A DNA stretch of 64,000 bases from a virus: IMG/VR virus record IMGVR_UViG_3300031951_000028. One strand, 5' to 3'. A program made the translations under genes and the position numbers. Within the stretch, counting starts at the first letter, position 1. Each line of letters begins with the position of its first letter. The notes under the pieces were generated by a model that was not told where the DNA came from, ran no database searches, and saw only the letters and a list, made by a program, of their open reading frames with translations. Positions 11,215 through 55,100 of this stretch are shown piece after piece.

Positions 11215-11215
11215 T

Positions 11216-13886: not shown

Positions 13887-13887
13887 C

Positions 13888-33501: not shown

Positions 33502-33514
33502 TTTAATCCTTGGG

Positions 33515-33542
33515 GGCGCGGGTAACCCCCGCGCCTTTTTTT
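33515..33542 (+). terminator. Rho-independent terminator
   Basis: GGCGCGGG-TAACC-CCCGCGCC followed by T7. Confidence 0.9.
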
Positions 33543-35152: not shown

Positions 35153-35155
35153 GCC

Positions 35156-36022: not shown

Positions 36023-36275
36023 AATGTGGAATGCGCAAGAGTCATTATATGAAGTGAGAAAAATGACTTATGAAGAGTTTGAAAAAGAATTCTTTAATAA
36101 AGAAAATTTTGAAAAGCTTTATAATTATTTTAAGAATGCGTGTGATTTAAATGTTCAGCGAAATGATCTAATTGACGAAATAGATGAGACGTTTGCTGAA
36201 ATCGTTATAAAAGTTGTAGAAAATAAAAAAATAGATACTGATAAGTTAAAAAGAAAGAAACACAAAACATATTAA
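35973..36275 (+). CDS. Small helical protein (DUF4254-like)
   Basis: TLGSLIDQLS...K.W...E; LN.QRNDLIDEID. Confidence 0.6.
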   Translation: MQTLGSLIDQLSVVNLKMWNAQESLYEVRKMTYEEFEKEFFNKENFEKLYNYFKNACDLNVQRNDLIDEIDETFAEIVIKVVENKKIDTDKLKRKKHKTY

Positions 36276-36276
36276 T

Positions 36277-37353: not shown

Positions 37354-38198
37354 TGGATATTTTATTATTAGGCGCTGGAAGAAGAATATCTTTAATTGAG
37401 CGTTTTCAGAAAAAAGGGTTTAATGTTTCAGTATATGAAACTGAAGACAACGCCCCTTCAAATTTAATAGCTAAAAATTGTAAACATCTTTATAATAATG
37501 ATAAAGAGGTTTGCGCGGCCCATCCTTGGTATCTAGCTTGTATGGATAAATTAACTATATTAGATTATCCTAATTATATAGGAAGCCCATTCACTGCATC
37601 TTATGCTTGTTATGATAAGGCTGGTTTTGAAGCTATTGTTGGTTTTTACTTTGCTAAATATTATCCTTTTTCCAGAATGTGGGATTCCAAAATTATTAAA
37701 CCGCGTTTTGGCAATAGTAGTAAAGGGTTTAGGCCAGCTAATTGGAATGAAGATTTTAATTATAAAACCGAAGTAATGCAAAAAAAACTTGATGGGGCCG
37801 AATACTCAGTAGATTGTTATTTCAATAGAAATTCAAAATTTATTGGTGGCGTATCTAGAATTAGACAAAGAGTCGCGGGCGGCGAGGTTATAGACTCACA
37901 AGTAGATATGAAATATGATATGCTTGAAGTCACTGCCACTATTGGTGAATTTTTTAATATGAGAGGTCCCGCATGCTTCCAATATATGCTTGCTGATGAT
38001 GGGTCTTTCAAATTATTTGAGATAAACGCTAGGGCCGGTGGAGGAATTATTTTATCTATGGAAGCTGGATTAGATATCGCAGAATATATAAAACAGGAAT
38101 ATTATTTAGAAAAAGAAGTAAAGCCAATAGATTTAAATTCTATTAATAATGGCTTAATTATGAGAAGAGTTAATAAGGAGTTTTTCTTTAATGCCTAA
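37353..38198 (+). CDS. ATP-grasp protein
   Basis: AGRR, C.DK, IKPRFG.SSKG, EYSVD, FEINAR.GGG. Confidence 0.85.
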   Translation: MDILLLGAGRRISLIERFQKKGFNVSVYETEDNAPSNLIAKNCKHLYNNDKEVCAAHPWYLACMDKLTILDYPNYIGSPFTASYACYDKAGFEAIVGFYFAKYYPFSRMWDSKIIKPRFGNSSKGFRPANWNEDFNYKTEVMQKKLDGAEYSVDCYFNRNSKFIGGVSRIRQRVAGGEVIDSQVDMKYDMLEVTATIGEFFNMRGPACFQYMLADDGSFKLFEINARAGGGIILSMEAGLDIAEYIKQEYYLEKEVKPIDLNSINNGLIMRRVNKEFFFNA

Positions 38199-38508
38199 AA
38201 CTATAGTAATTGATATGGATGGAACTATATGTGAAGAGTGTAGCACTTTTGATAAGTATTGTGCGCAACCGAAGATTGGCGCGATTCAATCAATAAATCA
38301 TTTATATGAAGAAGGTAATATAATTATTATTTATACGGCTCGCGCATGGCCTATGTTTAAAATGACTAAAGACTGGCTTGAAAAATATGGAGTAAACTAC
38401 CATACTTTAATTTGTGGGAAGCCTCAAGCTGATTATTTTATAGATGATAGATCATTTACATCTATAAATCAATTTATGAATTATAAGAAGGATCATTTAA
38501 ATGGCTAA
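38191..38508 (+). CDS. Small HAD phosphatase (capsule-biosynthesis type)
   Basis: IDMDGTIC, YTAR, T..WL, GKP.AD.FIDDR. Confidence 0.85.
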   Translation: MPKTIVIDMDGTICEECSTFDKYCAQPKIGAIQSINHLYEEGNIIIIYTARAWPMFKMTKDWLEKYGVNYHTLICGKPQADYFIDDRSFTSINQFMNYKKDHLNG

Positions 38509-39226
38509 GCCAAAAATTGCAGTATGCTCAATGTTTAGAGATTCACAGGTTTGGTTTAATAAACAAACTAATCAAGTATACAGATTGTTTTCATCTCTAT
38601 TAGATCAAACATATGGATTTGAAAATTTACAATGTTATTTTTTAGAGGGTGACTCGTTAGATAACACTAATGAAGTTTTACAAAATCTTGTAGAAAAATA
38701 TAGTAATGTAAAACTCTTTAATAAAGAGGCAACATTTAACAGCGTGGTCTCAACCACTAATAAAAATAGAATTAAATCAATGTCAAATTTAGGTTCGTAT
38801 TTAATTAACCAAGTGGAAGAAGATTTAATATTTTGGGTAGAATCAGATCTTATTATAAAACCAGATATTATACAAAGACTTTATGATAGAATGACTAAAA
38901 TTCCTGAAAGTGTTAGTTCTGTTATTTCCGCTCCTTGTTATTATGGTAAAGATGGCCAATTTTATGATACTTGGGCCTATAGGAATCTAGATGGTTCTAA
39001 CTGGCGTCCAGATACTAATATGAGAAATTCTGGTATGGTAAAAATGCAGAGCGTTGGTTCTTGCGCGTTAATACGCCGAGCTAATAATCTCGCTGTTAAT
39101 TTTGGTGACGGGGCTTTTGTTGAATTGTGTGAACGAGTTAATAATTCTGGTGGAGTTGTATACGCTGATTGCAATCAATCGGTAGAGCATCCAAGAAACG
39201 AATTCATATCAGGGAGATGGATATGA
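38501..39226 (+). CDS. GT-A fold glycosyltransferase (Anp1-like/GT2-like)
   Basis: EGDSLDNT, WVESDL, FYDTWAYR, SVGSC. Confidence 0.65.
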   Translation: MAKPKIAVCSMFRDSQVWFNKQTNQVYRLFSSLLDQTYGFENLQCYFLEGDSLDNTNEVLQNLVEKYSNVKLFNKEATFNSVVSTTNKNRIKSMSNLGSYLINQVEEDLIFWVESDLIIKPDIIQRLYDRMTKIPESVSSVISAPCYYGKDGQFYDTWAYRNLDGSNWRPDTNMRNSGMVKMQSVGSCALIRRANNLAVNFGDGAFVELCERVNNSGGVVYADCNQSVEHPRNEFISGRWI

Positions 39227-39978
39227 TAGGTATAATGATAACTGCAACAAATAATTATTTCCCTTTAGGGTTAAGATTTGTTCATAGATATCTTAGGTTT
39301 TCTAAACAGGCAGAAGAAACTTTATTCTTTTTCTTTTCTGAAAAGGATCCTAGTGAATACCTTAAACAGCATGAATCTACTAAAGTGATATGGATAAAAA
39401 CAGAACATAGTAATTGGTTAGAGGGCGTAAATAATAGATTCAAAAATACTATAGATTTTGTTTTTGGAAAAAATATAGATTATATATATAATATAGATTC
39501 TGACACTAATTTTGATAAAAGTTTTGAATTGCCAAAAGTTAATGGTATTGTGGCTGGTGAACATTTTGGTAATAATAGCTGGATGAAAGATAGAAAAAAT
39601 TACGATAGAAATCCTCAATCTATGTCATACGTTCCAGAAAATACTCAATTACCACAAATGTATTATTTGGGCGCGTTTTGGGGAGGTGAGGTATCAAAAG
39701 TAAAAGAGATGTGCGCAACCCTCTATTTTTGGCAAGTGCAAGATAAAACAATTAATTATGAGCCAGGAGTAAATGATGAAAGTTATTTAAATAAATATCT
39801 TCATTATAATCCTCCAAACTATACAATCTTATATAAAGATTTCCCAATGATGATATCTTGTAAAGGGGGAATACAGAATATAAGATATAATAATCCTGCC
39901 CAAATAGAAAAACTTTTAAAAGATATTAAAATTGCTAATAATTGGAATATATTAAATGGAGTAGTACAACATGATTAA
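39223..39978 (+). CDS. Family 6 glycosyltransferase (ABO/alpha-1,3-Gal(NAc) transferase-like)
   Basis: IG....ATNNY, DSD, YDRNP.S..Y, YYLGAFWGG, NDESYLNKY. Confidence 0.85.
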   Translation: MIGIMITATNNYFPLGLRFVHRYLRFSKQAEETLFFFFSEKDPSEYLKQHESTKVIWIKTEHSNWLEGVNNRFKNTIDFVFGKNIDYIYNIDSDTNFDKSFELPKVNGIVAGEHFGNNSWMKDRKNYDRNPQSMSYVPENTQLPQMYYLGAFWGGEVSKVKEMCATLYFWQVQDKTINYEPGVNDESYLNKYLHYNPPNYTILYKDFPMMISCKGGIQNIRYNNPAQIEKLLKDIKIANNWNILNGVVQHD

Positions 39979-40258
39979 AAAAATATTAAAGTTTTTATCT
40001 GAATATTGGCCATTAGCTCTTGGAAGTTTATGTGCTTTATTTTTTGTAGGAGTGTCTATTGCTTTTTATTGTTCTGTAATAGCTTTTCAAGACTCTCGAA
40101 AAGCGCATAAAAACACACAAAAATTAGAACCTTTTATTGTTCTCGGTCAAGATTTGCGTGGTTATGAAATAAGGAAAGATCAAAGCAAATATTGGATTTT
40201 TACTAATGGTTCTGGTGAACCTGTAGTTGTAGATGTAACTTACAAGCCGGGGTTTTAA
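39971..40258 (+). CDS. Membrane-anchored hypothetical protein
   Basis: N-terminal hydrophobic helix. Confidence 0.6.
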   Translation: MIKKILKFLSEYWPLALGSLCALFFVGVSIAFYCSVIAFQDSRKAHKNTQKLEPFIVLGQDLRGYEIRKDQSKYWIFTNGSGEPVVVDVTYKPGF

Positions 40259-41199
40259 TGAGATTATTTATTACTGGTGGTAGTGGTTATTTAGGCAAGC
40301 ACTTAATAAAACACTACTATAATAAAGCAGACATCACTATTTTTTCTAGAGATGAAGCTAAGCAGTTTTTAATTAAGCAGCAATATCCAGATGTCAAATG
40401 CGTACTTGGAGATGTAAGAAATTATGATAGTCTTTTAAGAGCAATGAGACAATATTGGCCTACGCACGCAGTGTTTGCTGCTTCTATGAAACATATAGAT
40501 GCTTGTAGAGATAATTATCAAGAAGCTAATGATATTATAGTTAAGGGCGCTTTCAATAGTAGACAAGCTGCTGAAGAATGCGGAGTAGATGCTGCATGTT
40601 TTATTTCTTCTGATAAAAGTAGAGCAGCGACAACTATTTATGGCTCAATGAAATACACGGCTGGTGAAGCTTTTATTACAAATCCAACTGATATGAAAGT
40701 TAATACTTTAGTATATGGAAATGTAATGAATAGTACTGGATCTATAATTCCTAAAATTTGGGAGACTATTAGATCTAACACCAATAGTTATGGTCGTTAT
40801 CTATCTTTATATCATTCAGATATGACTAGATTTTTATATGATATTAAAGATGCTGTATCTTTAATTGATTATGCACTATCTCCGGAAGCTCCTAATGGAA
40901 CTACTATGGTGCCATATATCAAAAGTTTTAAAATTATAGATTTATTTAATTTATATACCCAGCAATTTGGCTTGACATGGAATCTAAGCTCGCCAAGGCC
41001 TGGTGAAAAACTTCACGAAATTCTTATTTCTAAAGAAGAATGGGCTCGGACGACAGAAGATCCTTATAGATCATTATATTTTATCCATAATGATTTCCAG
41101 AATAAATTAAATTTTGATACAGATTTCTCAAGTAGAGATTATTGTATAAGCAAAACAGAATTAAAAATGTATTTAGAACAAAATGGATGGTTTAAATGA
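40258..41199 (+). CDS. UDP-GlcNAc 4,6-dehydratase (PseB/FnlA/CapD family)
   Basis: TGGSGYLG, SRDEAKQ, GDVR, AAS.KH, SSDK, YGSMK, YGNV..S.GS, MTRF, RPGEKLHE. Confidence 0.9.
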   Translation: MRLFITGGSGYLGKHLIKHYYNKADITIFSRDEAKQFLIKQQYPDVKCVLGDVRNYDSLLRAMRQYWPTHAVFAASMKHIDACRDNYQEANDIIVKGAFNSRQAAEECGVDAACFISSDKSRAATTIYGSMKYTAGEAFITNPTDMKVNTLVYGNVMNSTGSIIPKIWETIRSNTNSYGRYLSLYHSDMTRFLYDIKDAVSLIDYALSPEAPNGTTMVPYIKSFKIIDLFNLYTQQFGLTWNLSSPRPGEKLHEILISKEEWARTTEDPYRSLYFIHNDFQNKLNFDTDFSSRDYCISKTELKMYLEQNGWFK

Positions 41200-42041
41200 A
41201 GATATTTATATTCGGCGCGAATGGAATGCTGGGGTCATATTTAAGTAATTTTTTCTCTAACGCAAATGCCGTACCAATCACAAGACAAGATATAGATATA
41301 ACTAAAGTAAATGCAAGATCTATTTCTTCATTTCTTAGAAACCGAGGGCTTAAATATGGAGACGTTGTTATTAATGCTGCTGGCATAATCAAACAACGCA
41401 AGTCAACGCCCGAGGAAATGTTTTTAGTTAATACCGTATTTCCTAAATATTTATCTGACATCTGCACAAAACTTGGGTCCAAAAATATACATATCTCTAC
41501 TGATTGTGTATTTAGTGGTTTAGACAATAGTGTATATATGGAATCAGATTACCCTACTCCTAATGATTATTATGGTTTTACAAAATATGCTGGTGAACAG
41601 CATAATGTAACTTTAATCAGAACCTCAATAATTGGTGAAGATAAGACTGGCTTAAGTTTATTAGGCTGGGCGCGCAAAAACGCAGGTAAAGAGATAGACG
41701 GTTATATTAATCATTATTGGAATGGTTTAACTTGTTTAGAGTTGTGTAAGTATATAGATTGTTTATTAATAAAAGATAGGTTATTTACTGGTTTACAGCA
41801 TGTGGCTACTAGCATAAAAATAAGTAAATATGAATTATTAAATATATATAACGAAGTATTTGATTTAGGATTAACTATCAAACCACTTCATGCTACCTAT
41901 ACTTGTGATAGATCATTATGGTCTATGAAAGAGAATACTTATGATAATATTGTTTATATTAAAAACGATTATCACCAGCAAATGAAAGAACTTAAAGATG
42001 CGAAAAATATTTATAGTGACTTCGGTCATAGAGGCATCTAA
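41196..42041 (+). CDS. NDP-4-keto-6-deoxyhexose reductase (RmlD-like)
   Basis: GANGMLG, INAAG, ISTDCVFSG, YGFTK.AGE, RTSIIG. Confidence 0.9.
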   Translation: MKIFIFGANGMLGSYLSNFFSNANAVPITRQDIDITKVNARSISSFLRNRGLKYGDVVINAAGIIKQRKSTPEEMFLVNTVFPKYLSDICTKLGSKNIHISTDCVFSGLDNSVYMESDYPTPNDYYGFTKYAGEQHNVTLIRTSIIGEDKTGLSLLGWARKNAGKEIDGYINHYWNGLTCLELCKYIDCLLIKDRLFTGLQHVATSIKISKYELLNIYNEVFDLGLTIKPLHATYTCDRSLWSMKENTYDNIVYIKNDYHQQMKELKDAKNIYSDFGHRGI

Positions 42042-42729
42042 TTCAGTATTTTCAACTGAAATTAGATTAACCCAAACAATAGATACTATTGAATCTATAA
42101 GTAGACAGCAGCCGTCAGCAGATATTATATTTGTTGACGGCTCGCCTAATTCTTATGCTAAAATTATCAAGCGGATCAATCCAAAAATAAATTATATGCA
42201 TATAGCGCGCGAGCGGCCTGATTTGCTTAATGATGTATTATATAGTGATAATAAAAGTATAGGCGAGGCTACTTTAATTAAAGCAGTTATAGACCGTGAT
42301 TTACTTAAATTATTAGATTATGATTTTATTATTAAGGCCACAGGTAGATATTATTATGAGAATTTAAATGATAAATATTTTCAAGAATCCTCTGTTAATA
42401 AATTTCTTTTTATACAGAGCAAAGATGATGTTAGAGAATGGAATAATGGGCGTGTGGATTACTCCTTAATTAAGGACCTAAGATACCCTGATGGCAAGCG
42501 CCATATATTTAAAACTGGTTTGTACGCATTATCTACTAAAAAACTTTGGCGTTTTAGGGATAAGCTTGCAAACATTATTACCAAACTAAAAAATCCTCTA
42601 TACCAGAATTATGATATAGAGAATTTATTATATAATGAATTATTAGATGAGGTGGTGTCTAATAATATCATCAATGTTGATTGGAAAATTTTAGGTTGGT
42701 GCGCTAATGGTATTTTTGTTAATACTTAA
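41998..42729 (+). CDS. Putative glycosyltransferase-associated protein
   Basis: VTS.I...R..QT..TI.S, D.S, KSIGE, K.TGRY, DIE motifs seen in phage glycan loci. Confidence 0.55.
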   Translation: MRKIFIVTSVIEASNSVFSTEIRLTQTIDTIESISRQQPSADIIFVDGSPNSYAKIIKRINPKINYMHIARERPDLLNDVLYSDNKSIGEATLIKAVIDRDLLKLLDYDFIIKATGRYYYENLNDKYFQESSVNKFLFIQSKDDVREWNNGRVDYSLIKDLRYPDGKRHIFKTGLYALSTKKLWRFRDKLANIITKLKNPLYQNYDIENLLYNELLDEVVSNNIINVDWKILGWCANGIFVNT

Positions 42730-42956: not shown

Positions 42957-43294
42957 TAATAAAACCAATTATAAACTAGAAAAGTTAATAATATAGCTTG
43001 ACATAGAGCTAGTGCATTAATTATTGTAAATGCATATTTTGGATTTAAATAAAGAATCCATCTCACGATTCCTAGTACAAGTATCGTCATAAACACTTTT
43101 ATTGCTACGAACCGTGAAACGTCCCATTCATCACAATGTAGAATTAAACGAGCTATTGGATTAAGCTCATATTCTGGTAAATTATCACAATATTTAATTG
43201 TTAAATATACGTCTACAGAACTAACAAAACCTATGAAAAGCCAGCATAGATAAAACCAAACACATTTAATTTTGTCTGAGTATTTTTTCAGCAT
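42956..43294 (-). CDS. Membrane protein (DUF5658-like)
   Basis: Three hydrophobic segments; D..LT...ELNP.A motif. Confidence 0.6.
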   Translation of the reverse strand: MLKKYSDKIKCVWFYLCWLFIGFVSSVDVYLTIKYCDNLPEYELNPIARLILHCDEWDVSRFVAIKVFMTILVLGIVRWILYLNPKYAFTIINALALCQAILLTFLVYNWFY

Positions 43295-44993
43295 TTTTTA
43301 TAGCTCTTTTAACTACTAGACGCGCTCCAGCCCTAATAAATGGCAGTTTGCGCCTATCTGCTTCGCTCTTTAACCAATCTAAAATAGTTTCTATATTATT
43401 ATTACACCATTCGCAGCCATTAATATTCATCATGGCGGCATATCTATTGCATGAGCAGTTAGGTGTAGCTTCTATTCCAAACATTTTAAGAACTTTTTTC
43501 AACTCAGTACCGGGCCCGATTTGAGGGTCCCATAAATAAATTGGTTTGGTTGGCCTATCTTCTTTCTGTTTAGAAAGCATTAATTGGCCAGAACCTTCAG
43601 AGTTTATTTCTGCAATAAACCACTCTGGATTCGCATCTACCCATTTCTTCACGTAAGCAATAAACTCAACTCCACCAGAAGTGTAGTTATTGAATATAAT
43701 TCTCTTTTGAGCCGAAGGTCCGGCCGCAGCTAAAAATGTATATAGATTAGTTTTATCCATTCCTAGTAATAATAGTACATCTACAGGTTCGATTTTCTGA
43801 GGGCGTTTAAAACCAAATCTTAAATCTATTAGATTATCTTTTGGTTTAATATTTTCAATACGCTCTATACTATTAGTATAAATCCAGTAAGTATCTGGTT
43901 TAGCTACTACTACAGGGATAGAATAATCTACAGTATCTCCAAACTCGCATACTGTTTTCATACCATCTATCTTTGATTTTAACCAAGCAAGTTCTGGCCT
44001 GTTTTTAGATATTATATCATAGGCTTCTTCTAAAGTTAAAGGTGTTTTAGATTTGGTTTCCATTAATAATTTTTCCCAATCCATTTCTTTAAATAAACCA
44101 GAACCAACAAAATGTTCTTTAACGGGTGTTAAATCTAACCCAAGCTCAGTGAAGCCAAGAATATAATTTCTTACTTTATTTTCTCTAGTTAGAGGATATT
44201 TAACTCCGCCCGGACGACCAAATCTATGCAACCATCTTAAAAATGGTAAACATATAGCTTTATGGCCTGCTTTTCTGAACTTCTCATGGATATAACCCTC
44301 TTCACCACCAAATCCGCGCATATCAGGATTAAACCCAAGCCACGCATGCTTCATACAAGTGAATAGACCTAATCCTTGTGCGGGAATTTCAAAAGGCTCT
44401 TCGTTGGGATCAGTAGCAAGTTCTTGATTAAACGTAAGTTTTTCTCCACAACTACATTTATTATCAACTATAGTTTGAGGGTTTAACTCCATAGTACAAG
44501 CTTGGCCTTCATTATTCTTACTATAAATAACGCCGCATTTGCATTTATACGCACTACCCCAAGTGCCCCACATTTCACTTCGCCAATATAAATTAAAGTG
44601 AGTGGCATAATTTTTTAAATTATCATAAAGCATTGGTCCAGAATATAAATTTTTAGTTTCTGGATCAGCGGTGTAAAATTCTATTAGTTTTTTAATAGCT
44701 TCTTTATCTAATAGAACATGACAGTCAATACATAGAACTGCATCGCCACTAGCTTCTTCAAACACCCTTTGTCTAGTTTGCGTAGTGCCGGTGCTTTCTT
44801 TCATTGCTATGTATTTAGCATTTGGCACCCAGCCCATAAATGATTTTACTGATTGGCCATGTGGCGAATCAGGAGAATTGTCAACCACTATAATTTCTAC
44901 ATCATTCAATTCATGATGCATTCTAAGTGATTGAATTGTAAAATAAACGCCGTCAAAATCCTCAAAATGAGCCATTCCAATTGTTAGTTTCAT
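43266..44993 (-). CDS. GT-A glycosyltransferase with ppGalNAc-T-like motifs, fused to a degenerate methyltransferase-like domain and a Cys-containing tail
   Basis: EIIVVDN, IDCH (DxH), GLGLF, GFGGEE, LHRF; GAGGA RBS. Confidence 0.8.
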   Translation of the reverse strand: MKLTIGMAHFEDFDGVYFTIQSLRMHHELNDVEIIVVDNSPDSPHGQSVKSFMGWVPNAKYIAMKESTGTTQTRQRVFEEASGDAVLCIDCHVLLDKEAIKKLIEFYTADPETKNLYSGPMLYDNLKNYATHFNLYWRSEMWGTWGSAYKCKCGVIYSKNNEGQACTMELNPQTIVDNKCSCGEKLTFNQELATDPNEEPFEIPAQGLGLFTCMKHAWLGFNPDMRGFGGEEGYIHEKFRKAGHKAICLPFLRWLHRFGRPGGVKYPLTRENKVRNYILGFTELGLDLTPVKEHFVGSGLFKEMDWEKLLMETKSKTPLTLEEAYDIISKNRPELAWLKSKIDGMKTVCEFGDTVDYSIPVVVAKPDTYWIYTNSIERIENIKPKDNLIDLRFGFKRPQKIEPVDVLLLLGMDKTNLYTFLAAAGPSAQKRIIFNNYTSGGVEFIAYVKKWVDANPEWFIAEINSEGSGQLMLSKQKEDRPTKPIYLWDPQIGPGTELKKVLKMFGIEATPNCSCNRYAAMMNINGCEWCNNNIETILDWLKSEADRRKLPFIRAGARLVVKRAIKNAEKILRQN

Positions 44994-45030
44994 AATATCC
45001 TCTATCTTTTATCTTAAAACACTATCTTGT

Positions 45031-47886
45031 TTATGGAGGGGTTGTAGTGGTTGTAGTAGGAGTCGCGCATGGTAGGCTTGAAGGCCCTTCACAAGGCGAT
45101 CCAATTACTCCGTATGGACACAGGCATTGAATTAATGTGCCAGCTACGCAATTACTGCTATCCAAATAATATTGATTAAATTCATTACATAAATAATTAC
45201 ATGATCCTGTACATGGTCCGTAACACACATCACAATCTGTTGCTGCTCCTTGCCATATACCTCCATTAGCTATACAGTTAGCTTCAGTAGTTTGTGTACA
45301 GCTATCTACTGGATAACCACAACAAGCGCCTTCTGGACCAGCTGTAGTGGTTGTAGTAGGAGCGGCTGTTGTAGTAGTGGTAGGTGCCGCAGTTGTTGTC
45401 GTGGTTGTAGTAGTTGTAGTTGTAGTTGCTGGAGGTTCTCCCGCGCATTCTGGATCTATAGCCCCAGAACAAGTTTCGCCTTCTGTCCAAGTACCAGATA
45501 CTAAATTACAATGCGCCTCAGAGACATATTGACAATTATCTGTTGTCCAAGGAAGATTATAACAACATCTTCCACAAGGTGGTGGGCAACTTTCAACACA
45601 AGTTTCTCCTGGGTGCCATGCTCCACTAACAGCATTACATTGTGCTAATGTATAACCTTCAATACATTCTCCACATTCACCAGCTAAAACAATGTTAAAA
45701 CAACAAGCGCCAGTAGGTGCTGAGGTTGTTGTTGTGCTTGTTGTAGTACTATTAGTAGTATCGCATCTAAAATATAAGCTTTGTGCTGGAAAACACGGTC
45801 CTCTAGCGTCTGGACAAGGACATCCTACATCACAAGTATCAGAACTTTTAACCCAAACTCCAGCCCAGCAAAAATAGTAACAACCTCCATTACAAGGAGC
45901 TGAAGTAGTGCTAGTAGTAGTTGAATTACAGCATTCCCAACAAGGATCTGGAGTCGTAGTCGGTTCAAGAGTGGTTGTAGTATTTAACGGTATACATGGA
46001 CTAAAAGTTTTTACACAATCTTGTAACTCAGTTGGTTGTGGACAATAACACCTGTCACCATTAGGCGCTGGCGATGCACAATTTTGCACTGACAAGCAAA
46101 TACCATAGCCAGGAATTTTTAACCACATGCAACCACCACCACAGCCTGGAGGCGCTATAGTTGTTGTAGTAGTAGCCGGTAATCTGTCACAGTCTGAAGT
46201 GTATGTATCACAAAAATCATTAGGTACACGATCAGGAGGTGTACATGTACATAGTTCAGTAGTTAAACCACCTATAGGACAATCATTATGTACAACGGCC
46301 CATGTTCTACCAGTATACCAACAATCTATATAAACCCATTCGCAATTTCCCTCGCATGGAGCTTCTGTTGTTGTTGTAGTAGTACTACCAGGATGAATAG
46401 TGGTAGTTGTTGTTGTATAACTTCCACAGTCACATGGTGGACATGTAGTAGTAGTACAATTAGGAGGCTCGCCTGGATTATATTCTGTACAAGATGTTGT
46501 AGTTTTTTGTCCAGTAAAAGTGGGACAGAATATTGGTTGAACACATTCACAATCACCAGGTGCTGGTGTAGTTGTAGTAGTGCTAGTTGTACTAGTAGTT
46601 GTTGTTTGTGATGGATTACAATCTATAGTAGTAGTTGTAGTACTAGTGGTTGTTGGCCCATCTGTTGTTGTAGTAGTAGTGCTAGTAGTTGTAGTACTTG
46701 TAGTAGTTGTAGTGGTGCCTTCACCACATGTATCACTTAATAATGTCCATGTTTTTCCATCATTAGATATCCATTCACAAGAGCCTGTGCATTTAGTTGG
46801 ATATACTGGTGATAGTGTTGTTGTTGTGGTAGTTGACTCTATAGTTTCATAGCCATTTAATACCCAATACTCACAAGCATCAGTATCCCAATAGCAGATG
46901 ACATGATCGCCGCCTTCATAAGCCTCATTTGTTTTGTTATTTACAACTATATTATTAGTACTATCTAAATAAATAGTGTTTCCATCACTGTCCCATAATG
47001 CAGAGCCTTTATCTTGATAAGCATTAGCTGAGCCGCCTACAGCCAAATCTTCTTTAAGAGTCGCGCTAATCATTTTATAAGCAGGTCTAGCAGTCCAAAC
47101 TCTTCTGCTTCTATCCCACACTAAATCTACCGGGCCTACTGGCCAAGTTTTTGATTTTTTAAGCCAATTATCTAAGAACTGATCTTTTAAATTTTGTGTA
47201 GTAAATATACCGCTTTCGGCATCTTCTTCTGTATCAGAAGCATTTGGCACTGGTTTTCCATCTGTATCATAACCCCATCCTTGAATAACCATTGGGCCTT
47301 TAAAAGCGAAAAATCTATAATCTTCAGAATACGGATCTCCACTATTTAATTCTGTTACTATAGATGAAATATGGCTGTTAATTCCTGTATCAGCGTCCCC
47401 ATCTCTAGCTATAATATCAAAATCATGGCCGCTTTGATATCCATAAGTAAAATCTGCTGGATTGGTTAGCGGGTTTAAATAATCAGCAGTGATTAGTATA
47501 TCATAACTAGATAAACTTCCACTATCATAAGTAATAGGCGGTTGAGCGCCTCTAGGAGCGTGTTGCGAGCAATTTTCGCATTCAATTGGTTGAGCAAATC
47601 TAGGAAGCCCGCCACTACCGTGTAAAGATACTGGCCTAAAAATGCCATCTAATGACATTGCGGCTTTTTCATCCCAGTCTGAAGCCATTTCCTCTCTTAA
47701 AGTCGAGGCGTTTGCTATAACTACAGTAGCCGCGTCTTCTGTTTGGCCAGTATCTCTAGGGTTCCATATGCCTATAATAACTTCACTATAGGCTAATGGC
47801 GAGCGTTGTGTGCTTTTATTTTCTCGATTTCTTCTATCGTGCGGTTTATTGCCGCCTTTTGTGAAATCATTAAACCCTTTACTCAC
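45031..47886 (-). CDS. Putative tail fibre/appendage protein with mucin-like poly-Thr and Cys-rich repeats
   Basis: 951 aa; C-terminal ~600 aa alternate Thr runs and Cys modules; located at the end of the tail operon. Confidence 0.75.
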   Translation of the reverse strand: MSKGFNDFTKGGNKPHDRRNRENKSTQRSPLAYSEVIIGIWNPRDTGQTEDAATVVIANASTLREEMASDWDEKAAMSLDGIFRPVSLHGSGGLPRFAQPIECENCSQHAPRGAQPPITYDSGSLSSYDILITADYLNPLTNPADFTYGYQSGHDFDIIARDGDADTGINSHISSIVTELNSGDPYSEDYRFFAFKGPMVIQGWGYDTDGKPVPNASDTEEDAESGIFTTQNLKDQFLDNWLKKSKTWPVGPVDLVWDRSRRVWTARPAYKMISATLKEDLAVGGSANAYQDKGSALWDSDGNTIYLDSTNNIVVNNKTNEAYEGGDHVICYWDTDACEYWVLNGYETIESTTTTTTLSPVYPTKCTGSCEWISNDGKTWTLLSDTCGEGTTTTTTSTTTTSTTTTTTDGPTTTSTTTTTIDCNPSQTTTTSTTSTTTTTPAPGDCECVQPIFCPTFTGQKTTTSCTEYNPGEPPNCTTTTCPPCDCGSYTTTTTTIHPGSTTTTTTEAPCEGNCEWVYIDCWYTGRTWAVVHNDCPIGGLTTELCTCTPPDRVPNDFCDTYTSDCDRLPATTTTTIAPPGCGGGCMWLKIPGYGICLSVQNCASPAPNGDRCYCPQPTELQDCVKTFSPCIPLNTTTTLEPTTTPDPCWECCNSTTTSTTSAPCNGGCYYFCWAGVWVKSSDTCDVGCPCPDARGPCFPAQSLYFRCDTTNSTTTSTTTTSAPTGACCFNIVLAGECGECIEGYTLAQCNAVSGAWHPGETCVESCPPPCGRCCYNLPWTTDNCQYVSEAHCNLVSGTWTEGETCSGAIDPECAGEPPATTTTTTTTTTTTAAPTTTTTAAPTTTTTAGPEGACCGYPVDSCTQTTEANCIANGGIWQGAATDCDVCYGPCTGSCNYLCNEFNQYYLDSSNCVAGTLIQCLCPYGVIGSPCEGPSSLPCATPTTTTTTPP
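45034..46845 (-). repeat. Coding poly-Thr tracts (mixed ACT/ACA/ACC codons) interspersed with Cys-rich modules
   Basis: Imperfect GTA/GTT triplet runs on the plus strand, e.g. 45343-45428 and 46567-46716. Confidence 0.9.
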
Positions 47887-50657
47887 TATTTCTGCCCTGT
47901 ACCAAATTTATTGAATAATTCTTGTCTTATATTTCCTATCTCTTTAACTCTATCTATTTTAGCTTTAGCGAAACGTCTAAAGCCTTTAGTATAAAGTTGG
48001 AAAACATAAGTGGTGGTAATGCCATCAGCACCGTAATTAATATTCATACTAGATATAATAGGTCCTAAAGTACCGGTCCATCCTACGGCCATTAAATCTA
48101 CTGTACCCCAAGTTATTCCTGGAAAACTTAAAGAACTATTAGAAGTCATTGTCCTAGTGGCTATAATTCTCTGGCCCGCAATATAGCCAGAACCATTAAA
48201 AGCCATCATTTCCTCGCCTAATCTTCCTTTTGGTATCCCCGGAACTGTTATTGTTCCACTTTGACTCTTATACATTGTAGATACACCAAAAGTGACTTGG
48301 TCCAAGGCAGCAGCATTCAAAGCTGTCATACTCCCAAAATTCCATGGAGTTAAGCTATAATCGCTATTTACAGCTGTTGGGCCAGAGCCGTTGCCAAAAT
48401 ACCAAGGTCCATAAACTTCTTCATTATTAGTTAAAGCAACTGTCGCTGCGCTAGGAGTTCTTGGTCTACGAGCGCTCCATAAACTAACTGTAGAACCGCC
48501 AACACTTCTAACGCTTGGGTCTGCTTCTTGCTGAGCTTGTCTTAATATTGGGTTTGTGCCATCTATAACTTTACCATTTCTATTCCATAAATCGAATTGA
48601 CCTTTTTCATTTATGGATTGCGGCAATTCTATAACTACTCTTGGGTCTGTTAAATTAGCAGCATCTCCAAACACGAACTGAGATTGTGTAGAGCATTTAG
48701 CCCATAAAATACCGTAATTGCCAGAATTAAAGTCTACATAACCATATTGGTCTTCATCTAAATTTTTAAAATCTATAGTTTGACCACTATCATATCTGAC
48801 AAATGGCCTAATTCTACCATCGCCCAATCTAAAGAAATCCATAGCTACAGAAGTAGTGTCTATACCTAATAAATTAAAAAACTCAGTTCCACTATCTTCA
48901 TTCCAACCGCCATCAGATACACTTCTACTAAAAGTAATTTCTCCAGTATCAGGGTCTCTTTTAGCACATAGCCAAGGTATTCTTACTTGGAACTTTTTAC
49001 CATAATAATTTGATGCTAAATCTAAAACCCAGTTATACAATAAGTCTTCATCATTTTCTATAAGATTTTGTAAATCTTGGGCTGTTTTTACTTTCTTTAA
49101 ATTTAAATAATGAAAGGGTTTTAGTATTTGATTTGCTACCGCTGGGCTATTATTCATTACGGTCATCCAATGAGCCATATCCCATAAACCTAATTGTGAG
49201 GTAGCATTACCTACAGAATGAACTGCTCTCAATAACTGCGCGGTTGGCCTATTATGAGTAAAAACATAACTTTTCCAAGACTCTTCTCCATCTAAAGCAG
49301 CTATTAGTTCATATTCTTCTAACTCTATATAATCTGGCACGTTCAATACTACTGTTTGATATTTTAAGGCTGCAGTATTAGCATCAAAATATACAGTAAC
49401 AGGATCTGAAGTCATAGTTTTGGCGTCTAAATTCAAATCAACACCATTTGGTGTACACCAATCTATTCCACGACTCATTAACACATTACCATTATTATCT
49501 AGACCCCAATAAGGTTGTATAAAATCATCACTTAAATCATAATTGTATATATCTACTTCTTCAAACTCTTGAGTTGTAGGATTCCAATACTCTCCAGTTG
49601 TTTCAGAATAACCATTTGTCCCGCGCACATTTTCAACATAATACATTTGCTCTTTTCTAGGACCAAGTGTAAAATTATTAAAAGTGCCAATTCTTAATTC
49701 TTCCCCTACATTGGCAGATATTCTTCCGCACCCGCTATTATAAGAATCTAAAAATTGCGCAAGGGTATAGCTAGTGATTGGGCCAGTTCTATCTATAGTT
49801 CTTATTTTTATAAATTTATAGACAGTATTATCTTCACATACAGGAATTAGTTCTACCATAAACTCCATACCAGCATCTTCAATCACTTGAGAAATCATAT
49901 CCCCAAGTATTGCTGATTGCCCCTCAAATCTATAATAATCTGGAGCTATAGGCACCTCTGATATATCTAATATATATCCTACATCATCTTCTCTTATTAA
50001 ACCAAAACCACCACTTAGCCCAGGGATGAATTTAATTCTATTATTTTGTAAAAAATTAGATGTTGGAATTGATCCAGTATTAGCAACTAACCCACTAAGT
50101 AACACTACAGCGGTTCTAATCTTTACCCAAGGCATGCCTTTACCATAATTAGACGCGCCACCAAAAGACGCGCACGCCTGATATTCCCATAGCCCATAAG
50201 CATTAATAACATTAGGAACTGTAAAAGTGCCACCTTTATAATCATCTAAAATAACAGAGATGGAATTTAGTATATCTGTTGGGGCAGAAATATCTACAGT
50301 ATAAATATTTAAACCGCCTGTACTATCATCTTTACTTACTTTTTGCACTATTCCTGAAAATTCAAAATCTCCATGTTTAAAGCAAACAGGGACGCCAATA
50401 AGATTCTGAGACTCGCCAATAAAACCTGGGTCAGCACCTGTCCACTCTTGTGTTTGAAAACATTCATCTAAATATAATTTAGGTAAATTTTCTGGACATA
50501 CCGCTTTTGGATCTTCAACTAATACTACTGTTACGTTACCGCCTCCACCGAGCGCTTGCATGTCACCAGAAAAGCTTTTAACACTCAATCCTAAAAACAA
50601 CCACTGGCGCGGGCATGAATCCGCACACGGCGTACAATTTACATAAGGTCCAGGCAT
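47886..50657 (-). CDS. Tail tip / baseplate-hub-like structural protein
   Basis: 923 aa, second gene after the tape measure; beta-rich composition. Confidence 0.55.
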   Translation of the reverse strand: MPGPYVNCTPCADSCPRQWLFLGLSVKSFSGDMQALGGGGNVTVVLVEDPKAVCPENLPKLYLDECFQTQEWTGADPGFIGESQNLIGVPVCFKHGDFEFSGIVQKVSKDDSTGGLNIYTVDISAPTDILNSISVILDDYKGGTFTVPNVINAYGLWEYQACASFGGASNYGKGMPWVKIRTAVVLLSGLVANTGSIPTSNFLQNNRIKFIPGLSGGFGLIREDDVGYILDISEVPIAPDYYRFEGQSAILGDMISQVIEDAGMEFMVELIPVCEDNTVYKFIKIRTIDRTGPITSYTLAQFLDSYNSGCGRISANVGEELRIGTFNNFTLGPRKEQMYYVENVRGTNGYSETTGEYWNPTTQEFEEVDIYNYDLSDDFIQPYWGLDNNGNVLMSRGIDWCTPNGVDLNLDAKTMTSDPVTVYFDANTAALKYQTVVLNVPDYIELEEYELIAALDGEESWKSYVFTHNRPTAQLLRAVHSVGNATSQLGLWDMAHWMTVMNNSPAVANQILKPFHYLNLKKVKTAQDLQNLIENDEDLLYNWVLDLASNYYGKKFQVRIPWLCAKRDPDTGEITFSRSVSDGGWNEDSGTEFFNLLGIDTTSVAMDFFRLGDGRIRPFVRYDSGQTIDFKNLDEDQYGYVDFNSGNYGILWAKCSTQSQFVFGDAANLTDPRVVIELPQSINEKGQFDLWNRNGKVIDGTNPILRQAQQEADPSVRSVGGSTVSLWSARRPRTPSAATVALTNNEEVYGPWYFGNGSGPTAVNSDYSLTPWNFGSMTALNAAALDQVTFGVSTMYKSQSGTITVPGIPKGRLGEEMMAFNGSGYIAGQRIIATRTMTSNSSLSFPGITWGTVDLMAVGWTGTLGPIISSMNINYGADGITTTYVFQLYTKGFRRFAKAKIDRVKEIGNIRQELFNKFGTGQK

Positions 50658-50658
50658 C

Positions 50659-52152
50659 TTATCCTACTCCAGTACAACAATCTGAGAATGAAAAGGAGAT
50701 ACTTCTAGAGTAAGCTCCAGTTTTTGGGTTCCAACTTTCCTGATCTACATCTGTATACACCGAATCATACTGTCCAGTTAAATAATCATACCAATCATTA
50801 ATTAAGTCATCTAATGTTGGTTTTGCTGGGCTAGTAATAAAACCACTATCTCCAGGGCAAAGCTTACCACAATCTAATACTAAAGTTGCATTTATAGTTT
50901 TACTACCTTTAGTTTTGATTCCTAAACATTGTAAAATAGGGCAAGGCCTGCCTAAAATTTGCAGCTCTGCATAAACATCTGTTGGATATTGATCTGTAAC
51001 ATCAATACTTTCATTTAATATCGTACAACCTGAAGGTGCTTCTAAACAGAAATTATCTGTTTCATAACTTGCTGCATAGGTTATTTGGCCAGCTACAGGA
51101 GAATGGGTGTGTGAAAATGTTGTGTAAACTGGTGTTAAACTTTCACCAGATATTGTTTGGCATCTTGTATGTAAAATACCGCTAGTATAACCCCAATATT
51201 CTAGCGCGCTTTCATATTTATTTTTAGTAATAGTATAGCAATTGCCGCTGTAATAACCACTCTCATAACCAACGATTGTACCTTGAACACTAATATTTCT
51301 AAGGCGACTATCTCTTGATGCTTGAATATCTACAGTAAAATCTTCTCTTGCGCTGTAAATATCTCCAGTATTTTGTGCTAATACCCAAGTTTCTGTGACT
51401 GAATACTCTCCAGCTGTAACACCAATTGAATTCGTTCTTATATGATTAAATAAATCATAAGAACCTATACAACCACCGCCTACATTAGTATTATACCATA
51501 TTCCAGTATCCCATCCTAAAGCGCTTTCTACTTTATCTTTAGCTATCTTCCATCCTTCTACAAAAGAGATATCTCCAGTTGTACAAGTGTCTTTAGCTTG
51601 CGCTCTTACATTGTGTGTTATATTAAAAGTGCGTTTAGGACTTAGCTCCCCGGCAATATTAAAAAAGTTTTGCTCTACATCTAAAATTATATCCCAGCTT
51701 TCATCATAGCTAGTTATAGACGAGTCTACACAACATGTAATATCTGGAGAAGATATGCTATTAGTCTCTAGTTCTATTGTATATGGTAATGAAAAGACCA
51801 TATTGTCTGGACTTTGCTGAAAAGATATATTTAATACTCTACAGCAAGCTTTAAATATCTCATCACCATCGCACTCTATTAATAGATCGCCGTCGCAGTT
51901 AAAAGTATCTAATAAAGTTTTTTTGGCTTCCATTATATTAGATATGCCGGCAGCAGTATCTACATTTAATGGAGGAAAAGCTGTTGGGTCTGGTCTTAAA
52001 ATTAAACCTTGCAAACTAATAGTATATCCACACCCAATCTGCATTCCAGCTTGTGTTCTAGATATTTGTTTTGCTATAGATGTAATTAATGGACTCGGTG
52101 TTACCGGGGTTCCATTATAATATAGTATAACTGCTTGATTTTCTATTGGCAT
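50659..52152 (-). CDS. Tail structural protein (distal-tail-like by position)
   Basis: Directly downstream of the tape measure; repeated strand motifs ESW/ETW. Confidence 0.55.
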   Translation of the reverse strand: MPIENQAVILYYNGTPVTPSPLITSIAKQISRTQAGMQIGCGYTISLQGLILRPDPTAFPPLNVDTAAGISNIMEAKKTLLDTFNCDGDLLIECDGDEIFKACCRVLNISFQQSPDNMVFSLPYTIELETNSISSPDITCCVDSSITSYDESWDIILDVEQNFFNIAGELSPKRTFNITHNVRAQAKDTCTTGDISFVEGWKIAKDKVESALGWDTGIWYNTNVGGGCIGSYDLFNHIRTNSIGVTAGEYSVTETWVLAQNTGDIYSAREDFTVDIQASRDSRLRNISVQGTIVGYESGYYSGNCYTITKNKYESALEYWGYTSGILHTRCQTISGESLTPVYTTFSHTHSPVAGQITYAASYETDNFCLEAPSGCTILNESIDVTDQYPTDVYAELQILGRPCPILQCLGIKTKGSKTINATLVLDCGKLCPGDSGFITSPAKPTLDDLINDWYDYLTGQYDSVYTDVDQESWNPKTGAYSRSISFSFSDCCTGVG

Positions 52153-52161
52153 CTTAAATCC

Positions 52162-55100
52162 TTAACTTAGTTTTGAATAATTCATATTATTTGCGGTGGC
52201 AAAATCACTCAAAGCTTTATCTACTACGCTTTGGACGCTAGCTAAGACTGCATCATTTGCCCCGCCTCCTCCGCCTCCAGTAACAGCTCCAGTAACAGTA
52301 ACATTTCCTTCTATATTAACTTTAGCAGAAGCTAGTAAACTGGCCGCTTTTTCAAAAGTTTGAGCGGCTGCTATAGCTGGTTCAAAATTAATACTACCAA
52401 AATCAATTTTACCTAATTGTTGTACGCTTTCGTTGAGACTATTAAACGCGTTTGATATATCAGTGATTACTTGTTTATCTTGGTCATTAAAGTATTGAGC
52501 CGCTTCTTCATTAGTTTTTAAAGCTTTTTCTAATTGATCTTTTTCTGGAGCGGTCGCGGCAACCTCATCTGTTCTTAAAGCAAGTTCGCTAATTTTTTTA
52601 CCTTCGAACTCATAACCACTAGTATCTACACCTAATCTTTCGGTAGCCTTACCAAACTTATCTAAAGCTCTTCTAGCTTTTCTAGCCTGTCTAGAATCTC
52701 CACTTTGCTCTGCATTAGCTAGTTGTTCTTCTAAACGTTTCTTGATTTCACCTCTGTCAATATCAGATAAATTACTAATATTTCCACCGGCTTGGAATTG
52801 TTGTAATGAAGCATCTCCACGAGCATCAGCAGTCCCTAAAAGAACTTGCTTTTCTAATTCTTCAGCTTTTTTAGGATCTTTCTGTCTTTCATTCTCAATT
52901 GCTGCAGATAAACTACCTCTTTCTTCTTCTGTTAATTGACTGTAGTTTATTTGTCCAGTTTCTAAAGCTTTAAGTGCCTGCTGTCTTTTTTGTATTTGCT
53001 CTCTTTGTTGGTCTGAACCTAAAGCAAATTCCAGAGCTCCCTTTCTATCAACCGCTCTTGCTCTTAGTCTCTCTTCAAATTTAGTTAAAGCTAAAGCCGC
53101 ATCTGCTGTATTAGTACTTAATACATTCATTGCCGCATCAACTGCTTTTATCTCAGTTGTAAGATTTGCCATCTCTTGCTGAGCATTTTTATTATTTATA
53201 TCTAATTCATTTCTACGCTCTTCAAGTTTACTCTTTCTGTCTGTAAGTTCTTGAACAGAATAGTCTTGTCCAGTAGATTTATTAACACCTACTAAGTTTC
53301 TAACTTCTTGATTTTTTAAATCTACTTGTCGAGCTGCTAAATCAGTTGCTGTTGCTCCACTTAATGAGGCGTACTGATCTCTAAATTGAGCTGATTGTCT
53401 AACTGGATTAAATCTATTCTTTCTAGCTGTTAAACGAGCATCTGAATACTGATTCATTAATTGGACGCGCTGTCCAGTTAATTGATCTGCTGCTTGTGCT
53501 GCTTGTAATACTGTACCTTGATCTTCTGAAACTGTATCGTCAATAACTTTTTGAAAATCGCCAACTCTAAGTTTATCAGCGACTACATCTTCATTAGTAC
53601 TTGTATTTCCAAGAATAGTTTGACTAAAACCTTCTCTTAATTTTTGGGCTTTTGTTGAATCATTTTCTAAATTTCTAGATATAAAATTTTCTAAAACTTT
53701 TTTAGATGCGGATGTTACATCACGACCGCTTGTTCCAATTTCTTTTTGGACTAAATCATTAAAATTCTGGCCAAAATCTTGTACTGTCCCAACTTCATCT
53801 GCCAATTTAGCCACTCTACTACCTTTACCAAAAACACTTTTAAGTTGTTCTTGGGCTTTATCTTTTGTAGCTTGGTCATAACCACCTCTATTACCTAATA
53901 CTTGAGCTATGTTTGTAGCTCTACCAGCAGATGTTAAATCCCCAGTTCTTCTTGCTTGCGCCTGCTCTTGAAAATTAGCTATATTAAAACTTGAGGCGTC
54001 AGTAATAGCTTGAATTTTTGGAGCTATACTTTTTCTATTGTAAAATTCTTGTTCAGTTAAATCTTGTACTTTATCAGAAGATTGTTTTAATTGATTATCT
54101 ATATCAAGTTGTTTTAGTCCAAGATTATTTCTATTTTCTAATTCTTTCTTTGTGGAATCAAATGTATCTGCATATTTATTATATCTTTGTCTCTTAATTT
54201 TTTTAGTTTTACCAGTGCTAGGGTCAAAAAAATCAAATTCATCTTCTCTAGATGTAAATTTTTTAATTAATTCATCTGTAGACAATTCTTGATTTTCTGC
54301 TTGCGATCTAAACGCGTCAAAAGCTGCTACGCCTTCAGTGCCTATATTGCCAAAAAATTCACTTTGTAATTGCAATTTATCTACAGAGCCTACTCGCTCT
54401 TCTGCTTTTTTTAATCTTTCTTGATCTCTTACACTAAAACTGGCGCTGCCTTGCGTAAATCTTTTCTTTCTAAGAAGAGCTATTTCATTTCTATCGACAT
54501 CAGCTTGTCGTGTTAGTTCTGGCAACTGCTCATCTAATTTACCAATATAGTCTCCAGTGATTTGTTTCGCAATACCAATATCTTCATCTCTGCTTTCATA
54601 ATATCTTTCTAAAGCTCTATCTGAATAACTTTTCCCCCGTCCAACACCAGTTAAATTTGAAAAAGCGGTAGTATATGTACTTCCAGAAAGAGGATTAACA
54701 AAATCTTTTACTTGTTGTATAGCTATCCCAGTATCATCTAAAACATCATTTTTAGTAGTAAAGGATAAATCCGCTCCTAGTTGTCCAGTATTTAATAGCG
54801 CTTGTTGTAATTGATTTTTATCATAGGAGGCTCCTGGAATACCTATATCAAAACCAAATGTTTCTTTATAATTATTAGCACTCCCACTTCTAGAAAAATT
54901 ATCAAATTGTTTCTGTAAGCCGCCATAATTACGATCTTTAACACTAGTCGTAATTTGATCAGCAAGCTGTGTTTTTTGTAAATCTTGTTGTCTTTTAATA
55001 GCTTGATTTCTTAATTCAAAAATACTTATCCCAGCACCAGCTATTCCACCAGCTATTGCGCCGGGTATACCGGCGAATTGTGAACCAGTAGCTATACCAC

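Follow-up and report, generated by a model that had tools for sequence, protein, structure and literature searches.

A GT27-like phage glycosyltransferase encoded next to a threonine-tract tail-tip protein: a candidate mucin-type O-glycosylation module

Two adjacent genes at the end of a phage tail module, encoding a glycosyltransferase (GT), P0001, and a Thr-rich protein, P0002, that is its candidate substrate, are the subject of this study. They lie in a 64,000-nucleotide stretch of viral DNA, hereafter the window, which corresponds to bases 49731-113730 of the 128,386-base linear IMG/VR virus record IMGVR_UViG_3300031951_000028 (estimated completeness 86%). The tail module extends over 63.7-42.7 kb on the minus strand, and its genes follow each other in the order 2275-aa tape measure protein, 497-aa protein, 923-aa protein, P0002 (951 aa), P0001 (575 aa) and two small open reading frames (ORFs). 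No notable promoter or terminator was found when the interval between P0002 and P0001 was scanned. The features of the locus are listed in Table 1.

Table 1. Features of the tail module and of the neighbouring sugar cluster (positions refer to the window).
Feature	Position	Strand	Description
P0001	43266..44993	-	575-aa soluble three-domain enzyme: GT-A domain, methyltransferase-like fold, Cys-containing helical C-terminal domain
GT-A catalytic domain of P0001, aa 1-317	44043..44993	-	Closest solved folds: GT27 ppGalNAc-T1 and Toxoplasma GalNAc-T3
D90-C91-H92 of P0001	44718..44726	-	Putative DxH metal-binding motif replacing DxD; aligned to D-S-H of GalNAc-T10
GFGGEE (aa 227-232) to WLHRF (aa 254-258) of P0001	44220..44315	-	Putative counterpart of the GT27 Gal/GalNAc-T motif; H256 predicted third metal-ligand His, F258 aromatic at H+2
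Class I O-methyltransferase-like fold of P0001, aa 319-478	43560..44039	-	VIA-align Z 13-15 to O-methyltransferases
Helical C-terminal domain of P0001, aa 485-575	43269..43541	-	CxC-x11-CxxC motif; model pLDDT 77-93; conserved
P0002	45031..47886	-	Tail-tip extension protein, candidate glycosylation substrate; 951 aa, GTG start
P0002 aa 1-350	46837..47886	-	Conserved tail-tip domain, common to many phages without Thr tracts (homolog and viral-stretch searches)
P0002 aa 351-951	45034..46836	-	Mucin-like region in which 16 Thr tracts, mainly of the form P-T(n)-x-x-P, alternate with five copies of Cys module A and three of Cys module B
923-aa protein	47886..50657	-	Tal-position tail-tip protein; stop overlaps P0002 start (TAGTG)
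497-aa protein	50659..52152	-	Dit (distal tail) candidate, assigned from gene order, without a family match; homologs precede the fused protein of L010 and L033
Tape measure protein	52162..58989	-	2275 aa; phrog_28, E 1e-19
Nucleotide-sugar and GT cluster	33510..42729	+	LegC/PseC-like aminotransferase, methyltransferase, ATP-grasp, GT2, GT6-like, PseB/FnlA-like dehydratase, RmlD-like reductase, heptosyltransferase-like N-terminus

With tracts defined as runs of at least 4 Thr/Ser residues, the tracts of P0002 contain 109 of its 172 Thr residues, and the protein as a whole is 18% Thr and 7.5% Cys. Thirteen of the tracts end in T-x-x-P. Nowhere else in the 128-kb virus record does a protein have two or more such tracts. 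The Thr codons within the tracts are mixed (ACT 51, ACA 46, ACC 11) and tandem repeats in the DNA are weak, which indicates that the composition of the tracts is maintained at the protein level. Between the tracts lie copies of two Cys modules, C-x-G-x-C-x-[WY] (module A) and CC...C...C...W-x-G...C (module B). With its dense Thr/Ser tracts and Pro at positions -1 and +3, P0002 fits the features of mucin-like domains rich in Pro, Thr and Ser (PTS domains), glycosylation itself being a candidate property. P0002 had no match in Pfam or NCBIfam, and ESM Atlas gave no usable match for its C-terminal part. The AlphaFold model of its N-terminal domain (mean predicted local distance difference test score, pLDDT, of 59) was too poor for a fold search.

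The AlphaFold model of P0001, by comparison, is confident (mean pLDDT 88) and displays three domains. Residues 13-132 match Pfam PF00535 (Glycos_transf_2; E 4e-12, 46.8 bits versus a cut-off of 23.3), a model that also covers GT27 catalytic domains and is therefore not discriminating. In an alignment of 41 homologs (38-79% identity), residues D38, D90, H92, G229, E231, E232, H236, H256, F258 and R260 are invariant; W137, W142 and W145 are invariant as well. The metal motif is D-C-H and not the DxD of GT2 enzymes, and its His is conserved in all 41 sequences. No hydrophobic segment is present in P0001, the 19-residue Kyte-Doolittle average peaking at 1.2. More than 2,100 homologs, nearly all of them unnamed, were found in a metagenome protein collection, and in BFVD the top match is a GT-only protein, likewise unnamed, from an uncultured phage. 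The GT-A domain of the window protein also carries a zinc-ribbon-like CxC...CxC insertion (aa 150-185; 44439-44546), the Cys residues of which do not appear in the consensus of the 41 aligned sequences. The earlier note on this DNA had placed the two genes, which lie on the minus strand, at 43266-44993 and 45031-47886, had described P0002 as having mucin architecture (more than ten Thr tracts, often bounded by Pro and separated by Cys modules), and had pointed out in P0001 a DxH motif (CIDCH) followed by GFGGEE...RWLHRF; all of these descriptions hold, both P0001 motifs being recovered by translation.

The middle domain of P0001 (aa 319-478) gave the Z scores listed in Table 1 with the O-methyltransferase structures 8c9v, 5zw3, 5x7f and 4cdz. 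At the position of S-adenosylmethionine (SAM) motif I most homologs have TEFTKRRES and the window protein has CEFGDTVDYS; the glycine-rich loop is absent. Further degradation is seen in the window protein, in which HDT has changed to NNY and a GDDGG insert is deleted. Given the replacement of the SAM glycine loop and this further degradation, the domain is probably a pseudo-enzyme or scaffold domain, as far as its sequence indicates, and not an active methyltransferase. In the C-terminal domain, residues C513, C515, C530, G493 and G495 are invariant among the 41 homologs. A search of ESM Atlas with aa 318-575 yielded no usable match.

The fold of the GT-A domain places P0001 closest to the eukaryotic polypeptide N-acetylgalactosaminyltransferases (ppGalNAc-T or GalNAc-T), which constitute family GT27. 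In a Foldseek search of the Protein Data Bank (PDB) all 31 entries listed among the top 50 ranks were GT27 enzymes, with E-values down to 4e-13. VIA-align, run against one representative per 40% sequence cluster, likewise put the two GT27 clusters on top: mouse GalNAc-T1 (8v9q; Z 22.3, root-mean-square deviation 2.9, 257 residues aligned) and Toxoplasma GalNAc-T3 (8uhv; Z 21.7), with 257-261 residues aligned. The runners-up were WrtF, RmlT, K4CP and B4GALNT1 (Z 18.6-18.7), TarS (17.9) and SunS (14.7), so that the GT27 folds stand at least 3 Z units above the other GT-A enzymes. Across its entire catalytic domain, P0001 is thus matched best by the fold of these two structures, of human GalNAc-T2 (4d0t/2ffu) and of GalNAc-T10 (2d7i). 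The best match in a single-sequence phmmer search of the PDB was GalNAc-T10 (E 2e-4), in two stretches, of which the second scored only 8.5 bits. In this alignment the DxH motif is matched, as are the blocks AQGLGLFT, GFGGEE and WLHRFGR, the last two facing WGGEQ...GHIYRK of GalNAc-T10. P0001 thus shares with GT27 enzymes a D-x-H motif plus a downstream His, a predicted metal-binding triad, and its GGLF-like and GGE blocks and the aromatic residue at His+2 are candidate equivalents of the Gal/GalNAc-T motif.

The gene order (tape measure protein, 497-aa protein, 923-aa protein, P0002) and a set of fused forms indicate that P0002 is a tail-tip protein. Within the sequence TAGTG (47884-47888), the GTG at which P0002 starts shares bases with the stop codon of the 923-aa gene. 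In three related viral contigs, L010, L027 and L033, the homolog of the 923-aa protein and the N-terminal domain of P0002 form one protein of 1396-1985 aa, in which the P0002 domain sits mid-protein. In the 1985-aa protein of L010, residues 17-901 align to residues 16-918 of the 923-aa protein and residues 927-1273 match the N-terminus of P0002. In L010 and L033 the gene directly upstream of the fused one encodes a homolog of the 497-aa protein. Judged from these alignments and from the overlap with the 923-aa gene, P0002 is the split-off distal part of a protein encoded downstream of the tape measure and Dit-position genes. Since the three relatives have a single fused ORF here, either the gene has been split in the window phage or a frameshift at 47884-47888 has gone unrecognised.

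We then analysed 80 viral (IMG/VR) contigs encoding P0001 relatives of 31-52% identity. At the position directly upstream of the enzyme gene (-1) a protein with at least 3 Thr tracts was encoded in 57 of 73 cases, versus 6/71 at position -2, 9/70 at position +1 and 6/583 (~1%) at positions ±3 to ±8. A hand tally made after correction of ORF-overlap artefacts gave a Ser/Thr-rich neighbour in roughly 75 of the 80 loci; some of the apparent exceptions were due to ORF overlaps or contig ends, and others have Ser/Thr/Pro-rich neighbours below the tract threshold. The regions that precede the first tract in the partner proteins fall into 25 BLAST-unlinked clusters, which indicates that what travels with the enzyme is a Thr/Cys cassette and not one protein family. 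The Cys modules recur as well: module A is present in 45 of 77 partners versus 5 of 507 other long ORFs, and module B in 36 of 77 versus 1 of 507. The pairing was also found on contigs of metagenome-assembled genomes (MAGs) binned as Pirellulales, Pirellulaceae, Gemmataceae and others.

The layout of individual loci varies. On L086, a 478-kb contig of a Pirellulales MAG, a gene for a 717-aa protein with 14 Thr tracts is followed by one for a 644-aa enzyme (5823-14637), and a tyrosine-integrase gene lies 3.5 kb downstream of the pair. Because of this nearby integrase the L086 copy is probably a prophage, pointing to Planctomycetota as hosts of related phages; the hosts of phages with a P0001-type enzyme are probably Planctomycetota or other freshwater bacteria. 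A sublineage with short enzymes of 349 aa (L051, L055, L063-L068 and L076; about 11046 onward) has Thr-tract proteins on both sides of the enzyme, a long one upstream and another of 366-866 aa that begins right after the enzyme stop codon. At the Bradyrhizobium diazoefficiens locus L150 (6405-11196) the GT is fused to or lies beside an NAD-epimerase, with GT2-TPR and NTP_transf_5 proteins nearby, and at the Ca. Electrothrix locus L099 (7017-8846) the GT has a 330-aa N-terminal domain of no known kind; neither has a Thr-rich neighbour.

A complementary sample was based on the N-terminal domain of P0002, a widespread tail-operon domain with relatives in 255 viral stretches. In the protein collection this domain has 82 homologs, 74 of which are without a Thr array and contain little Cys. 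Among 80 viral contigs with relatives of the domain (30-42% identity), the enzyme was found in none within the downstream flank searched, which was 5-10 kb in most. The domain relatives encoded on these contigs have fewer than 3 Thr tracts in 76 cases and exactly three in the remaining four. Of the enzyme-carrying members of the domain family, those of the window, L010 and L033 have 8-16 tracts, and that of L027 has a single C-terminal TTTTQVP. A conservative 2x2 table of enzyme versus tracts gave a Fisher p of 0.0014, a value that is indicative only because related contigs share ancestry.

To characterize the tracts themselves, 659 of them from 63 dereplicated partner proteins were anchored on their last Thr. 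Pro was present at position +3 in 73% of these tracts, versus 16% at +1, 12% at +2 and 6% at +4, and directly before the first Thr in 41%. In the median partner protein 80% of the tracts end in T-x-x-P, and in the MAG loci Pro at +3 was found in 61%. The sequon of GT27 enzymes is T/S-P-x-P, the +3 Pro of which is taken by a conserved proline pocket, and F361 of GalNAc-T2 forms one wall of the adjoining +1 pocket (bioRxiv 10.1101/2020.06.25.171371). In P0001 the invariant F258 aligns with the aromatic residue of GalNAc-T10 at the spacing His+2 (phmmer, 41 homologs). We take F361 of GalNAc-T2 to be the residue two past the metal-ligand His. As in GT27 systems, the candidate substrate is Thr-rich and mucin-like, and its T-x-x-P tract ends fit the +3 Pro of the sequon, a match between sequences that is correlative and not enzymatic.

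The explanation that we consider probable is that P0001 acts in the cytoplasm, ahead of assembly, and attaches O-glycans to the T(n)-x-x-P tracts of the tail-tip extension, giving rise to a mucin-like appendage. P0001 would be a soluble, phage-encoded initiating protein O-glycosyltransferase, whose GT-A domain is predicted to combine a Mn2+-type D-x-H...H site with an acceptor side built like that of the eukaryotic polypeptide GalNAc-transferases. This enzyme would work in the host cytoplasm late in infection, moving a sugar, probably supplied as a uridine diphosphate (UDP)-hexose or UDP-N-acetylhexosamine (HexNAc), to Thr within the P-T(n)-x-x-P tracts. The acceptor tracts would be those in the C-terminal extension of P0002, which is apparently coupled translationally, and in some relatives fused, to the Tal-position protein. 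The product would be a tail-tip appendage of the beads-on-a-string type, in which small Cys-rich modules, probably stabilised by disulfides or metal, alternate with Thr linkers stiffened by glycosylation. Reach, adhesion or protease protection are possible functions of a mucin-like brush of this type. Thr as the acceptor, transfer before assembly and the role of the brush are what we infer here.

Several observations weigh against this explanation. A search of PDB sequences with the family profile of P0001 returned no GT27 enzyme at E-values up to 1; it returned TarP (E 1e-5), DPMS and TarS, matched in the nucleotide-binding half only. The likeness of P0001 to GT27 thus rests on its fold and on short motifs. 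In P0001 the conserved Glu is followed by another Glu (E232), where GT27 enzymes have Asn or Gln (Gln in GalNAc-T10). An acidic residue at this site is the catalytic base in inverting GT7 enzymes and, by analogy, the chemistry of P0001 might differ from that of GT27, possibly proceeding by an inverting mechanism. Control Thr tracts, which were taken from the same loci and are not a clean control, already have Pro at +3 in 21-33% of cases. Four viral loci (L013, L058, L072 and L075) are clearly without a Thr-rich neighbour, and GT-only relatives of ~43-45% identity reside in cellular glycan clusters lacking Thr-rich neighbours (Bradyrhizobium, Electrothrix), which shows that in the GT-A family at large the enzyme also occurs independently of Thr tracts. 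Finally, the related loci share ancestry, so that the counts given above overstate the number of independent events.

P0001 also differs from GT27 enzymes in its overall make-up. Its identity to them is ~13-16%, without a significant profile match. GT27 enzymes are Golgi type II membrane proteins, whereas P0001 is soluble, predicted to be cytoplasmic and encoded by a phage of a prokaryotic host. No ricin-type (CBM13) lectin domain is present in P0001: a Pfam search gave no lectin match, and the C-terminal parts fold as the methyltransferase-like domain and the helical domain with its CxC...CxxC motif instead. In its fold and predicted metal site the modelled P0001 resembles a working GT27 enzyme; it cannot be filed as a GT27 member, since it is without a lectin domain and a membrane anchor and the single-sequence and profile searches point in different directions.

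P0001 might instead be an ordinary GT2 enzyme with a sugar or polyol as acceptor, acting on a host envelope polymer as TarP does or in glycan extension. It would then simply stand at the end of the tail operon, and the Thr tracts would be unglycosylated flexible linkers. We regard this as unlikely. Its generic GT2 matches in Pfam and NCBIfam would agree with such a role, as would the ranking of TarP, DPMS and TarS at the top of the profile search, the Z scores of 16.6-18.7 obtained with TarP, TarS, RmlT and K4CP, and the GT-only relatives in cellular glycan clusters. The GT2 enzymes TarP (which is prophage-encoded), TarS and RmlT are moreover of the GT-A type and add sugars to a linear polymer with repeating hydroxyl groups, in likeness to what is proposed for P0001. 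However, these enzymes use DxD, act on poly-ribitol-phosphate, are without a GGE...H-x-F block, and as teichoic-acid enzymes are clearly outranked by the GT27 folds. P0001 has no membrane segment for a lipid-linked acceptor. An ordinary GT2 activity would also leave unexplained the position-specific pairing with Thr-tract proteins of ~25 different N-terminal domains, the T-x-x-P signature, and the lack of both GT and tracts among relatives of this tail protein.

Two further alternatives accept a link between P0001 and its neighbour. One is that the enzyme modifies other residues or targets on the same protein, for instance the Cys residues of the Cys modules by S-glycosylation as performed by SunS, the Thr tracts being mere spacers. 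The soluble bacterial glycocin S/O-glycosyltransferases of the SunS family (GT2) indeed use a GT-A domain to act on a genetically linked Cys-rich peptide, SunS itself aligns with the P0001 model, Cys is abundant too in 58 of the 68 dereplicated Thr-rich partners, and modules A and B recur in the partners as described above. The substrates of the SunS family, though, are short ribosomal peptides and not arrays of Thr tracts, we know of no T-x-x-P motif in substrates of glycocin transferases, and SunS falls far below GT27 in the fold ranking. It is to Thr, and not to Cys, that the conserved spacing is tied; in ten partners the Thr region is poor in Cys, one of these partners having 21 tracts of which 16 end in T-x-x-P; and in none of the related loci is there a Cys-rich neighbour without Thr tracts. 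Modification of Cys or of other targets thus seems highly improbable to us. We give somewhat more credence to the other alternative, which we nevertheless hold to be improbable as well: that the tracts are glycosylated on a product that is not a structural part of the tail (a released or cell-surface decoy, or an adhesin on the lysed cell), or that P0001 is a non-catalytic assembly chaperone of a repetitive protein. It would accommodate the resemblance of the P0001 middle domain to a dead methyltransferase and the lack of a PHROG or Pfam family naming P0002, whose placement in virions derives from the genes and not from proteomics. Speaking against it are the coupling of P0002 to the Tal-position protein, its fusion to that protein in three relatives and the widespread occurrence of its N-terminal domain in tail operons, and the invariant catalytic residues argue against a non-catalytic role.

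The earlier note had also included the convergent plus-strand cluster at 33.5-42.7 kb as the source of sugars and extending GTs. All family matches of this cluster are below equivalog cut-offs, and it reads as one for a modified 6-deoxy-HexNAc-type sugar. As part of a conserved system the cluster was dropped: homologs of its 13 proteins, searched by BLAST, were found near the enzyme (within 10 kb) in only 2 of the 80 loci. Although the claim thus has no comparative support, the cluster could supply or extend sugars in the window phage itself. Of the wider proposal made in that note, self-glycosylation of a tail appendage as a mucin-like brush, the GT27-like fold and the gene pairing stand, joined now by the T-x-x-P signature; the role of the sugar cluster and GT27 membership are unsupported. 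The checks that it suggested on these points, comparison of the GT-A domain with GT27 and GT2 structures and co-occurrence of the GT with Thr-rich tail genes, came out with GT27 ranked first by both Foldseek and VIA-align and strongly positive, respectively. Its description of P0001 as ppGalNAc-T-like is accordingly retained for the fold and for the DxH, GGLF-like, GGE and H-x-aromatic blocks that align with GalNAc-T10, and given up where it would imply GT27 membership, on account of the profile, lectin domain and membrane anchor.

The sugar cluster and the tail operon share 4 nt (42726-42729). A strong plus-strand terminator-like hairpin is present at 42898-42924, within the predicted 80-aa minus-strand ORF, which may for this reason be spurious, and a minus-strand terminator-like site is located at 42626-42591. 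The G+C content of the window is ~31-39%. A near-identical 4.6-kb stretch was found in 20 metagenome runs from 14 studies, most of them freshwater and six labelled 'fungus metagenome'; these runs are not independent, since 19 of them are a possible source of the window DNA. No RNA dataset was listed as containing the stretch. INPHARED phage records, among which those of this genome may be missing, contained nothing that matched P0001 as protein or 43000-52200 as DNA, and PHROGs gave no match for P0001, P0002 or the 923-aa, 497-aa, 112-aa and 80-aa proteins.

The closest published phage case is virion glycosylation in mycobacteriophages, for which phage-encoded glycosyltransferases are reported to modify the phage's own virion proteins in the host (Freeman et al. 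2023, Cell Host Microbe 31:1216, as cited in PMC12582341 and PMC10568470). Action of a phage GT on virion proteins of the same phage is thus reported there and proposed here, our own proposal being read from the genes. The present case is unlike that of the mycobacteriophages in that the candidate target extends the tail tip and combines T(n)-x-x-P tracts with Cys modules, and in that the enzyme is GT27-like, the enzyme sets being compared by description only. In mycobacteriophages the targets are capsid and tail-tube subunits, and they are modified by different enzymes. To our knowledge, O-glycosylation of phage-particle proteins is documented mainly for mycobacteriophages, and mucin-type initiation by GT27 is regarded as a eukaryotic trait. 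In the literature covered, which is incomplete, we found no publication on the pairing of a phage enzyme resembling GT27 with virion proteins that contain Thr tracts.

Beyond the window phage it is conceivable, and in our estimation a little short of an even prospect, that a large family of tailed phages and prophages (more than 2000 metagenome proteins; freshwater and Planctomycetota-linked) carries a self-contained cytoplasmic module for mucin-type O-glycosylation. This module would consist of a soluble GT27-like initiator with its own T(n)-x-x-P sequon and of a portable Thr-tract/Cys-knot cassette placed on many unrelated tail and fibre proteins. If this is true, the proline-pocket logic of animal mucin glycosylation operates in bacterial viruses too, and shared ancestry of both would be possible. 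P0001 and its relatives would then offer a simple soluble model for the reading of peptide substrates by GalNAc-T-like enzymes, and the enzyme and its tag a modular pair for the glyco-engineering of proteins in bacteria. The module would also account for the many Thr-rich low-complexity tails of phage fibres in metagenomes. It predicts glycan-brush tail tips in many uncultured phages, which would bear on models of host recognition, particle adhesion and protease resistance.

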